From the IMG/VR virus record IMGVR_UViG_3300028797_000006, positions 1 to 64,000 of that record: a DNA stretch of 64,000 nucleotides; one strand, written 5' to 3'. Source of the stretch: a virus. Lineage: Duplodnaviria; Caudoviricetes. The position numbers were made by a program, and so were the translations under genes. A model generated the notes under the pieces. That model was not told where the DNA came from and ran no database searches. It saw only the letters and a list, made by a program, of their open reading frames with translations. Positions 1-60,343 of the stretch are shown piece by piece. How positions within the stretch are numbered: position 1 is the stretch's first letter; each line of letters starts with the position of its first letter.

Positions 1-33
1 ACTATCTTTCTTTTGGTAATATATAACTTTCAT
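1..33 (-). CDS. 5' end of a hypothetical early gene (runs off window start)
   Basis: ATG at 33 after GAGAGG RBS; sigmaA promoter at 88-116. Confidence 0.55.
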   Translation of the reverse strand, partial: MKVIYYQKKDS

Positions 34-87
34 TCCGTCTGACCTCTCTTTCTTTGAGATACTAATTATCTCTTCTTTACACATATA

Positions 88-116
88 ATTATATCATATG
101 TGTATAGAAGAAACAA
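88..116 (-). promoter_or_regulatory. sigmaA-type early promoter
   Basis: TTGTTT-17 nt-TATAAT with extended -10 TG. Confidence 0.7.
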
Positions 117-140
117 GTAGTTTTACTCGTTTCCGTCTGC

Positions 141-431
141 CTAAATTATTTCAAACTCGGCATCTTCTATCTTGGCGGAGAATACGCCCGCAATATATTC
201 AAGATTGTTTCCGTCTGCGTCAAACTTAAGATTTTCTTTTGTTTGATAGAGTTGCTCGTTAAACTTATAACCAGCACGAACGCTAACTTCAACGAGTGGT
301 TCAGTATTTCCTCCGCAAGTAATAATTTTAATTCCGTCTACCACCACGAATGGTTCTTCTTTGTAGTCAATTTCTTTGACTAATCTTTTTTCTATTTTTT
401 TAATGAATGAGTTAAGACCTTTGATTTTCAT
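141..431 (-). CDS. hypothetical early protein
   Basis: 96-aa ORF, AAAGGT RBS, own promoter. Confidence 0.75.
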   Translation of the reverse strand: MKIKGLNSFIKKIEKRLVKEIDYKEEPFVVVDGIKIITCGGNTEPLVEVSVRAGYKFNEQLYQTKENLKFDADGNNLEYIAGVFSAKIEDAEFEII

Positions 432-457
432 AATCTCTTTACCTTTCTTACACCTAT

Positions 458-486
458 ATTATACACCTTTTTCACTTGCTTGTAAA
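458..486 (-). promoter_or_regulatory. sigmaA-type early promoter
   Basis: TTTACA-17 nt-TATAAT. Confidence 0.8.
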
Positions 487-522
487 GTAAATCTTTTAAC
501 TTTCCGTCTGCTCGGTTAGGTC

Positions 523-774
523 TTATAGACCTAAGATACCGAGCAAGAACTTTTCCGTCTGTTTGCGACTTTGTTTCACAAATTGTTTTTCAACAACTTT
601 GGACTCGTTTCCGTCTGCGTCATAGACTTTCTTTTCCACATCTTTCCATAAGTAGAGTGGGTATTCGCAACTTGCTGAGTGAGTGCGTCCGTCTGCCCCT
701 TTCTCTAACATTTGAAGTGTGATACGATTTCCATTCTTAATGAGTGTGTAGTTTTTCTTTTTTCCGTCTGCCAT
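523..774 (-). CDS. hypothetical early protein
   Basis: 83-aa ORF, purine-rich RBS, own promoter. Confidence 0.75.
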   Translation of the reverse strand: MADGKKKNYTLIKNGNRITLQMLEKGADGRTHSASCEYPLYLWKDVEKKVYDADGNESKVVEKQFVKQSRKQTEKFLLGILGL

Positions 775-804
775 AATTTTTTATCTCTCTTTCTTTCTAT
801 ATAT

Positions 805-833
805 ATTATACTACTTTGCGAGTATTGTTTCAA
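805..833 (-). promoter_or_regulatory. sigmaA-type early promoter
   Basis: TTGAAA-17 nt-TATAAT. Confidence 0.8.
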
Positions 834-1272
834 GACCTTTGAAGATATTTCCGTCTGCTGTGATTTTCCAACCGATATTTCCGTCTGCCTCACACCATTC
901 ACGGATATTTCTGCCGTAGTCATCAAAGAGAATTCCATCTGGGGTTTTCATAAACTCTCTTTTTACTTGCCCGTTGCGAATGAGAATAATTTTTCCGTCT
1001 GCTAACTTTTTGATATATCTATGTAGCCAACGAGTTTTTTCTCCGTCTGCCCTTTCATTTGGGCTCGCACTTAAAATATAGACATCATTTCCGTCTGCGA
1101 TTAACTTGCGTATTGCCTTTACATTTTCGTAAATCGGCTTCAAGCGTGAGAAGAAGCCCTTTTCAGTTCTAAATCTCGCTACTCCGTCTGGTTCCGCATT
1201 GAAGTCCGCCAAAACTCCGTCCATATCGCAATAGATAGTTTTTGATACTTTGATTTTTCCGTCTGCCTTCAT
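811..1272 (-). CDS. HAD-superfamily 5'(3')-deoxyribonucleotidase-like (NT5C) protein
   Basis: DMDGVLADF motif I, ILSAS motif II, LFDD motif IV. Confidence 0.8.
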   Translation of the reverse strand: MKADGKIKVSKTIYCDMDGVLADFNAEPDGVARFRTEKGFFSRLKPIYENVKAIRKLIADGNDVYILSASPNERADGEKTRWLHRYIKKLADGKIILIRNGQVKREFMKTPDGILFDDYGRNIREWCEADGNIGWKITADGNIFKGLETILAK

Positions 1273-1298
1273 TTTCTCTTGTTCCTTTCTTCCCTTAT

Positions 1299-1327
1299 AT
1301 TATATCATTTTAGAGTGCTCGCTTCAA
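1299..1327 (-). promoter_or_regulatory. sigmaA-type early promoter
   Basis: TTGAAG-17 nt-TATAAT with extended -10 TG. Confidence 0.8.
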
Positions 1328-1417
1328 GTAGTAAATTATACTTTCCGTCTGCCCCTACCTGACGGGTCTAGTTTTAGACCAGTCAAGTAGGAACGGACAA
1401 TTCCGTCTGCCCGTTTC

Positions 1418-9738: not shown

Positions 9739-10209
9739 ATGATTATAGATTATTTACCAACATACCATCAAGTAGAACCAAATACCCTCAAGGGTTTACA
9801 ACCAGGTTTCGTTGTCTCACAAATGAATATTGCTTCATCAGCAACTGCAGCATTACTCACAAGAGACGGAAAAATGGAAAATGGTCATATTTGCGGAATT
9901 AGCGCAGATGGTATCGTCAAAGCTGGTAGTGATACAAAGGTCTTATTCCTTCACTACACAGAACCTTTAAATACATTATTCAAAGGAGACAGATTCTTTG
10001 CTGTTAATCCTAAAGAAGAATGCCCACGTCTTGTTCAATTAATTCCAGGTGATGAATGGATGTCAGATATGGATCCATCAGATGTTTGTATCGAAGGCCG
10101 TATCGTTGAAATCTCAACATCAGTTGAACAATATGGACAAGATGATTTCTATGAATGCAGTGAATTAGCAGATGGCACTAGTGCACATCACTATATGTTC
10201 ATCGGTTAA
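9739..10209 (+). CDS. putative head decoration / minor capsid protein
   Basis: Between scaffold and MCP; VEPN..., MENG, LHYTE pattern typical of this slot. Confidence 0.6.
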   Translation: MIIDYLPTYHQVEPNTLKGLQPGFVVSQMNIASSATAALLTRDGKMENGHICGISADGIVKAGSDTKVLFLHYTEPLNTLFKGDRFFAVNPKEECPRLVQLIPGDEWMSDMDPSDVCIEGRIVEISTSVEQYGQDDFYECSELADGTSAHHYMFIG

Positions 10210-49563: not shown

Positions 49564-49824
49564 TTAGATACTGAATGCTCTACCGGCATCGGTTAAGCGA
49601 TAAGTTTTATATTCCTTATCTTTTGTTTCACCTTTATTATTGGTGAATGGTCTGACAACTGGTTCACCAGCTTCGACTAATTCGTGTTTAATTAATGAGT
49701 TGAGAACTGGATAGATACCTTTAATACCTGTCATCTCAATCATGTCTTTTCCGACTAAAGTTTCATCATGAGCTTGCATAAAGCTTAAGACTCTTTTGCC
49801 ATTATCTGTTAATGTAATTTCCAT
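49564..49824 (-). CDS. winged-helix DNA-binding protein
   Basis: LNSLIKHELVE...YRLTDAGR. Confidence 0.65.
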   Translation of the reverse strand: MEITLTDNGKRVLSFMQAHDETLVGKDMIEMTGIKGIYPVLNSLIKHELVEAGEPVVRPFTNNKGETKDKEYKTYRLTDAGRAFSI

Positions 49825-60246: not shown

Positions 60247-60343
60247 TGGCACGGGTTGTAGGACTCGAACCCACACCTACCGCTTTGGACACGGAATCTT
60301 TACGGTTTTGAAGACCGCTGTGCTGCCATTACACTAAACCCGC
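60247..60343 (-). tRNA. UGA-decoding tRNA (anticodon UCA; probable tRNA-Trp suppressor) with a 27-nt variable region
   Basis: Acceptor GCGGGTT/AACCCGT, G73, encoded CCA; D arm GTGT-AATGGCA-GCAC; anticodon arm GCGGT-CTTCAAA-ACCGT; T arm GTGGG-TTCGAGT-CCTAC. Confidence 0.92.

Follow-up and report, generated by a model that had tools for sequence, protein, structure and literature searches.

The class I activator CAP acts from position -61.5 of its promoters, and the distal subsite of the UP element extends from -57 to -47. The phage T4 protein MotA is a DNA-binding activator that needs AsiA; its box replaces the -35 element (centred at about -30) and is not reiterated at regular spacing through open reading frames (ORFs). 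The small proteins p4 and p6 of phage phi29 bind upstream sites, coat the region of the genome end and switch early promoters. A locus that can be compared with these systems is described here from an uncultured phage (IMG/VR record IMGVR_UViG_3300028797_000006; 118,402 bp). Bases 1-64,000 of this record form the analysed stretch of 64,000 nucleotides, referred to below as the window. It begins within a polar array of the motif AGACGGA, which is written in one orientation through a block of small early genes and stands at a fixed distance upstream of one class of their promoters.

The consensus of the motif is G-C/t-AGACGGA-A-a, and its extended form is GCAGACGGAAA. The window part of the array (34-1410) contains 18 copies of AGACGGA, all on the minus strand, which is the sense strand. 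They appear in the window as 18 copies of the 7-mer TCCGTCT (34-1408), the same number that the original prediction had counted in one orientation in 1.4 kb. The 8-mer TCCGTCTG is present in 17 window copies in a single orientation (0.54 expected), and GCAGACGGAA occurs in 12 exact copies at 131-1410, on the minus strand only, where shuffles expect 0.04. The prediction had noticed no copy in the other 62 kb; no further co-oriented copy is found there, but one reversed 7-mer at 9864 is the sole additional copy. Its extent of 33-1410 is right within the window, but the array crosses the record junction. The record ends overlap exactly by 127 bp, which marks the record as an assembler circle of 118,275 bp, and the cut of the circle falls inside the array. 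Past the junction the array runs on at 115,254-118,309. A count of the motif over the complete genome, which had been proposed as a check, gives 43 CAGACGGA copies in the whole array of about 4.4 kb, compared with five in the rest of the genome (114 kb), of which 3 share the orientation of the array and 2 are reversed. The junction-crossing of the array, its promoter register and its even spacing had not been part of the prediction.

At least seven related contigs also carry an array of this word, in the same orientation and at the equivalent place on the map, upstream of TerS/TerL, with 23-71 copies each. These include IMG/VR 3300028797_000845, 3300021400_001346 and 3300001528_000692, a phage contig binned into two metagenome-assembled genomes (MAGs), and three contigs found through a winged-helix protein family, each with 65-71 copies over about 6 kb. 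The exonuclease common to the array-bearing contigs shows just 29-83% identity among eight phage contigs, which indicates that the motif word is old within the clade. The relative L149 contains the nucleotidase and exonuclease genes and many promoters, yet it lacks the motif. A full-text literature search for the motif returned unrelated primer sequences only. A scan of IMG/VR for motif pairs was also made, and most of its matches were rejected as chance or as collagen-like GADGIQ repeats; for example, 10-mer look-alikes at L040:11530-13771 and L060:6425-7154 arise from GADGIQ repeats of a tail-fibre-like gene in unrelated viral contigs.

Sigma-A-type promoters were compared in seven genomes. 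Where a motif is present within 120 nt upstream of a promoter (63 cases), the distance from the A of AGACGG to the -35 element is 22-26 nt in 55, mostly 22-23 nt, and the orientation of the motif relative to the promoter is constant. Promoters of class A (n = 53) are composed of GCAGACGGAAA, 13-15 A-rich nucleotides, TTGaaa, a 17-bp spacer and TGnTATAAT, with the motif at about -60 to -51. Their -10 hexamer matches at 6/6 positions throughout, TG is present in 85%, and the mean match of the -35 element is 4.7/6. Promoters of class B (n = 58) are motif-less and read aaaaa.ttcTTGACa, a 17-bp spacer and TATAAT; their -35 element matches at 5.2/6 and TG is present in 29%. The class-A promoters are sub-optimal in the -35 element by this comparison, as activator-dependent promoters would be. 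Promoters outside the arrays are of the consensus TTGACA type with an A-tract and are likewise motif-less. A promoter stands in register with 21% of the copies, compared with 1.7% of random positions, and no second element was found at a fixed distance from the orphan copies within 40 nt on either side. The motif is an upstream element, in fixed register, of a special class of promoters.

Four class-A promoters are present in the window, all on the minus strand, with -35 elements at 1327, 833, 486 and 116. The gene of an NT5C-family deoxyribonucleotidase is driven by TTGAAG-17-TGnTATAAT (1299-1327), and its motif copy (1343-1352) is located 15 nt upstream of the -35 element. The promoter TTGAAA-17-TATAAT (805-833) drives an 83-aa ORF; its copy at 849-858, also 15 nt upstream, falls within the 3' end of the NT5C ORF and is read there as ADGN. 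A 96-aa ORF is driven by TTTACA-17-TATAAT (458-486), again with a copy 15 nt upstream (502-511). The fourth promoter, read from the sequence, has a weak -35 element TTGTTT (116-111) and a -10 element TGnTATAAT (93-88), and its copy (131-140) lies 14 nt upstream of the -35 element.

The motif is like class I sites and UP elements in its fixed position and orientation, in the weak -35 element and in the A-rich stretch before it. It differs from them in that it is G/C-rich rather than A/T-rich and in that about 79% of the copies are promoterless and are distributed at even intervals in coding DNA. Like the MotA boxes, it is a phage-specific, short and asymmetric word that defines a temporal promoter class for the host polymerase. 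Upstream activator sites and phage promoter words are thus already known kinds of element, as the MotA boxes and the p4 sites show.

The far end of the array shows that the register is tied to the orientation of the promoter. The main array ends at an intrinsic terminator in every genome, and this terminator is often made of the motif itself (GCAGAC-GGAA-GTCTGC followed by a T-run). Beyond it lies a non-coding spacer with a few reversed copies and with tandem copies 10-18 bp apart (including 11 bp). A convergent promoter is present in the relatives G005 and G008/L148 and in this phage (112,933), with the motif three bases past the -10 element, on +1 to +8. It is a perfect TTGACA-17-TATAAT in G005 and G008/L148 and TTTACA-17-TGnTATAAT (11/12) here. 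In the relative L150, a reversed copy lies 22 nt before a reversed -35 element. Since the reversed copies are in register with reversed or convergent promoters, the orientation of the motif follows that of the promoter. Such coupling is a property of the DNA and is linked to RNA polymerase.

The spacer beyond the array also holds the palindromic operators GAAAGCGCTTTC and GTAAGCGCTTAC. At 115,240-116,060 of the record, 12-bp palindromes (GAAAGCGCTTTC, and GTAAGCGCTTAC twice) are found beside -35 boxes, together with TTTGTCAAG/CTTGACAAA elements. A different regulator, of dimeric type, probably uses the palindromes and the TTTGTCAAG/CTTGACAAA elements as its operators. In three relatives (L150:9400-9800, L151:8100-8500 and L152:13950-14500), the spacer past the array contains a cluster of a second short repeat, (T)GTAGGTTAA, with 13-26 copies per locus; this repeat is absent here.

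From these features we consider it about an even bet that the motif is a DNA site read in one orientation by a factor that acts with the host sigma-A RNA polymerase on the early module. In the proposed mechanism, an immediate-early winged-helix protein would bind the motif and would aid the polymerase at the promoters with a weak -35 element, much as class I activators do; at the convergent promoter it would act as a block. Through the orphan copies the factor would stay bound all over the module and would there form a local reservoir or antenna, coat the DNA against silencing or stop antisense polymerase in a directional manner. The net effect of the factor may be activation or later shut-off. 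The original prediction had listed, among other options, a protein-binding array for early-gene activation or shut-off, and a fixed-register upstream element of a promoter class agrees with that option, the binding itself being predicted.

The candidate for the factor comes from the genes next to the array. The first gene past the array spacer always encodes a small winged-helix protein of the p77/p87 type; this gene is free of the motif, as are the two tandem class-B promoters that drive it. The p77/p84/p87 family comprises more than 400 unannotated members and has no Pfam match. Its structural model (predicted local distance difference test score 81.6) has a winged helix with a long beta-hairpin and is most like domains of the PadR, MarR and ScpB type. 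The family is present in all array-bearing contigs, and no homologue was detected in the 16.6-kb early-region locus of L149 that was searched. The motif-reading factor is probably a protein of this family, judging from its distribution and its gene position. Two further ORFs resemble the family. A tandem two-domain ORF at 104,444-104,929 of the record is a distant relative, and the 86-aa ORF at 49564-49824 (minus strand), which had been named earlier as a protein to be assayed for binding, has a weak resemblance to p77/p84/p87 (hhalign probability 10%).

Several observations weigh against a DNA-bound factor of this kind. The winged-helix proteins are linked to the motif by association, with L149 as the one negative case, and their binding is a prediction. 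A promoter role alone leaves the array, the polarity inside genes and the spacing unaccounted for, given the large share of copies that have no promoter. The extended -10 element of class A is perfect, and an activator may be unnecessary. The early genes are all co-oriented, so that the polarity also fits RNA-level, replication-linked and entry-linked readings. Finally, a metatranscriptome contig end with adapter read-through inside the motif variant GGCAGA^CGGGA (117,513) hints at RNA processing.

The copies are evenly spaced. The coefficient of variation (CV) of the gaps is 0.45-0.63, compared with 0.97 for random placement, with P<0.001 in each of eight arrays. The median spacing per array is 76-123 nt. 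In the pooled gaps (n = 359) the mode is 90-101 nt, which accounts for 21% of the gaps; gaps longer than about 120 nt become sharply less frequent, and gaps below 36 nt are few. Gaps that are wholly intragenic have a median of 82 and a CV of 0.40, compared with 0.90 for random placement. No 10.5-bp helical phasing was found in the pooled gaps, and multiples of three are in slight excess. By comparison, p6 of phi29 binds with a 24-bp period and is not sequence-specific, and no conserved polar 7-10-mer is associated with it.

A spacing of about 85-100 bp is close to the size of the polymerase-promoter footprint, and this match is the ground for a further explanation, in which each copy would dock one RNA polymerase holoenzyme, either directly or via the winged-helix adaptor. 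The copies would tile the host-takeover module and only those with -35 and -10 elements would fire, so that the module would withdraw polymerase from the host, as a sink that starves it, and would at the same time supply its own promoters from this reservoir. We regard this explanation as unlikely. A length scale of about 100 bp implies a mechanism such as coating, docking or directional block, and we know of no described phage regulatory system with such a mechanism.

The motif is kept in coding sequence as well. About half or more of the copies are located in ORFs, and the density of the motif is similar in coding and non-coding DNA. Copies that encode ADG use the invariant codons GCA GAC GGA, and copies in ORFs are read as xDG (74%), QTE or ETE (22%) or RR (4%). 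Most coding copies read A/P-D-G, in agreement with the recurrent ADG that had been noted before, and the off-frame copy described near 553 was found at 553-561, where it reads KQTE. Copies right behind the start codons at 762 (MADGK) and 1257 (MKADGK), and a copy between the ribosome-binding site and the ATG (34-41), are likewise present as described. An alignment of the NT5C orthologues, which had been suggested to see whether ADG is lineage-specific, shows 8 sites in this phage, 3 sites elsewhere in the protein in G001 (one of them in the RR frame) and none in G002. ADG is not kept in position while the codons are invariant. Because the sites of the orthologues stand at differing positions, selection acts on the nucleic acid and not on the ADG peptide. 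A protein-level ADG repeat was ruled out by these shifting sites, the invariant codons, the QTE and RR frames and the non-coding copies, and the earlier claim of selection on DNA or RNA stands on the same grounds. Selection keeps the density of sites while single sites come and go.

If the promoter link is right, the arrays represent a new promoter class and likely a new family of activators or repressors in uncultured large Bacillota phages of the rumen and gut. An oriented copy about every 90 bases through unrelated genes, with sites re-created as the proteins diverge, amounts to a nucleic-acid code laid over the protein code. To our knowledge, no system has been described in which a promoter word also occurs in coding sequence, in one orientation and at intervals of about 90 bp, and is kept by turnover.

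Selection on the nucleic acid may also act on RNA. In early transcripts the motif could be cut by a sequence-specific endoribonuclease, or it could provide a platform or sponge for an RNA-binding protein, and a site at least every 100 nt would hit every small mRNA. The closest known system is RegB of T4, which inactivates early mRNAs by cleavage at GGAG. Like GGAG, the motif is a short purine-rich word enriched in early transcripts and often found at ribosome-binding regions, whereas GGAG has 4 nt and doubles as a Shine-Dalgarno sequence, and the motif has 7-10 nt and DNA-level promoter features. More than 350 copies all lie on the sense strand, the reversed copies being sense to the convergent promoters, and several copies occupy the first codons or the stretch from the ribosome-binding site to the ATG. 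Within the array, an ORF-free stretch of 600 nt (record 117,030-117,640, minus strand) has about 10 copies or variants and a fold z score of -5.1 relative to shuffles. Part of the array is covered by metatranscriptome contigs that are identical to the genome, and one of them (117,039-117,513; depth 70) lies in this stretch; its upstream end meets the Illumina adapter inside the motif variant cited above, and its other end is also within a copy. This is a single robust RNA end, and contigs in general cannot show ends. Relative to GC-matched controls, the sites are predicted to be more accessible to the same degree on either strand, sense or antisense, so that accessibility does not discriminate. 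The promoter register, which an RNA role leaves unexplained, and the copies on convergent start points are DNA-level features, and we therefore judge reading in RNA to be rather unlikely.

Two ORF-poor stretches outside the window are represented among metatranscriptome contigs. The first (record 112,990-114,620; L124:12990-14620) is ORF-free over about 1.6 kb and has a GC content of about 55%, compared with 35% for the genome. On the minus strand, a near-consensus promoter stands at one end (114,658) and an intrinsic terminator at the other (113,010-112,991). Identical metatranscriptome contigs from two studies (depth 97 and 53) cover it; the ends of both fall at 113,008-113,012. With E<=1 as the threshold it still has no match in Rfam, parts of it are conserved in G001, and it is a candidate new large non-coding RNA. 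The second stretch (record 103,050-104,400; L124:3050-4400) has a GC content of 42-51% and a metatranscriptome depth of 461-546 and 113-206, from contigs that are about 95% identical; it may be another abundant structured RNA common to related phages. An Rfam search of the array and the adjacent GC-rich regions found tRNAs only, and the motif showed no complementarity to either of the two candidate large non-coding RNAs.

Short strand-specific words are also read by machines that track along DNA. Chi, the FtsK-orienting polar sequences (KOPS) and the SpoIIIE recognition sequences (SRS) are words of 5-8 nt that occur in coding sequence as well, as does the motif. They are chromosome-wide and replication-oriented and have neither even spacing nor promoter register, whereas the motif is limited to 4-6 kb of phage DNA and is not enriched in the sampled bacteria. 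The original prediction had offered Chi-like end protection as one option. A nuclease-attenuating signal of this type would shield the first-entering DNA (as in the first-step transfer of T5) or the genome ends from a strand-tracking helicase-nuclease, either the host AddAB/RecBCD or a phage exonuclease. The polar core of 7-8 nt is suited to it, as is the confinement of the array to an early module with a DnaQ-like exonuclease and a deoxynucleotidase, to which the pre-early genes of T5 are similar. A BLAST search with the NT5C protein for homology to T5 dmp did not reach T5-like phages. The small reversed cluster at the far end would provide a convergent arrangement, and contigs of the source run are about twice as deep at 109-114 kb as at 100-104 kb, a possible hint of a long terminal repeat. 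Against this, CAGACGGA has about random frequency in 401 bacterial genomes, which belong to the same class as a MAG whose bin includes a contig of a related phage, and is over-represented in none; the test is weak, as the host is possibly outside the sample. A Chi-like function requires neither even spacing nor promoter register, and L149 carries the exonuclease and nucleotidase genes without the motif. Protection of this kind is quite improbable. The k-mer depth of the source-run (X1) contigs is about 24-33 at 100,001-104,166, 47-58 at 109,140-113,797 and 41 at 117,591-117,982. The rise could reflect a long terminal repeat over the early region that has been collapsed in assembly, or mixed strains.

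Loading or guide sites for a DNA translocase of the FtsK/SpoIIIE type, or a binding ratchet for genome entry, had also been suggested in the form of polar translocase loading. The array is polar, long gaps are rare, and from the gene order it probably lies on early-entering DNA. No link to a translocase was found, the motif is neither skewed nor enriched in the 401 bacteria, the array occupies no more than 4-6 kb of phage DNA, and the promoter register would be unexplained, so this possibility is very improbable. A similarly slight chance is given to microhomology for the modular shuffling of early genes at shared promoter and motif cassettes, as in the promoter early stem-loop (PeSL) cassettes of T4. 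The early gene content varies greatly among the relatives and the promoter-plus-motif cassettes are near-identical, which speaks for shuffling, but the in-frame copies in conserved ORFs, the turnover and the even spacing are left unexplained. Another option raised earlier, replication iterons or a partition (centromere) site, is hardly credible. An oriented short sequence is repeated and small DNA-binding proteins are encoded nearby, but the copies are dispersed about 90 bp apart over 4-6 kb, mostly in ORFs, and not packed head-to-tail in a tight non-coding block; there is no AT-rich unwinding region and no adjacent initiator, Rep or ParA-type gene. The Neisseria DNA uptake sequence (a 10-12-mer including CCGTCTGAA) was rejected as well, as it has just the 7-mer CCGTCTG in common with the motif, the promoters and relatives are of Bacillota type, and no genome-wide enrichment was found in the 401 genomes.

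In the array region, small genes stand in a block on the minus strand, and every one of them has a sigma-A-type promoter to itself. The block encodes the NT5C deoxynucleotidase, the DnaQ-like exonuclease and small winged-helix proteins, and the distance from the array end to the divergently transcribed TerS/TerL genes is 3.4 kb. The layout resembles a "host-takeover" module. The host-takeover module of SPO1 and the pre-early region of T5 likewise contain many small early genes with their own strong host-type promoters; the module here also includes a nucleotidase and a nuclease. We know of no comparable reiterated motif in the SPO1 and T5 regions.

In the window, the first of these genes is an 87-aa early ORF that spans the record junction; its 5' part lies at 1-84 (minus strand, as are the following genes), and the copy at 34-41 fills the spacer between its ribosome-binding site and ATG. 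The 96-aa early ORF (141-431) contains one CAGACGGA (ADGN) and one TAGACGGA variant at 333. The 83-aa early ORF (523-774) contains 4 copies, three of which read ADG and one KQTE. The NT5C-family 5'(3')-deoxyribonucleotidase (153 aa; 811-1272) contains 8 copies, of which 7 read xDG. Immediately upstream of the array, two genes of 59 aa and 166 aa (1418-2129) are without the motif, and the 166-aa gene also lacks it in G005. These genes mark a sharp upstream boundary of the array. The adjacent 41- and 55-aa ORFs at 2321-2632 resemble N- and C-terminal pieces of a GIY-YIG homing endonuclease (GIYRL...YVGQA and ...YWIEYFG) and are probably a decayed gene; intact GIY-YIG genes are found at the equivalent place in relatives and at 108,347-109,000 of the record.

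The genome was recovered from a bovine gut metagenome and is that of a large siphovirus-type phage. It encodes TerL, a portal protein, a tape measure protein, a PolC/DnaE-type polymerase, a RecJ-like nuclease, a DnaB-like helicase, a type II topoisomerase, a sigma factor and eight tRNAs. A nucleotide search of the INPHARED phage collection gave no match. The nearest cultured phages (TerL identity about 35%) infect Alicyclobacillus, Geobacillus, Bacillus and Lactococcus, and the host is, on the evidence of these relatives, a member of the Bacillota. A host assignment through a GyrB-like protein in MAG contigs was rejected, as the matches are mis-binned phage contigs. Contigs of the phage clade (L139-L142; 42-91 kb) are present in MAGs labelled Oscillospiraceae, Bacilli, Gemmiger formicilis and Parabacteroides goldsteinii. 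Since the bins of G. formicilis and P. goldsteinii hold the same phage, the bin labels are not evidence of the host.

A tRNA with the anticodon UCA, labelled tRNA-SeC by ARAGORN, is located at 60247-60343 (minus strand) of the window. The TerL genes of two relatives (L125:9401-11212 and G002) contain three in-frame TGA codons each, and the TerL gene of this phage contains none. The phage clade appears to recode TGA in late genes via a suppressor tRNA.

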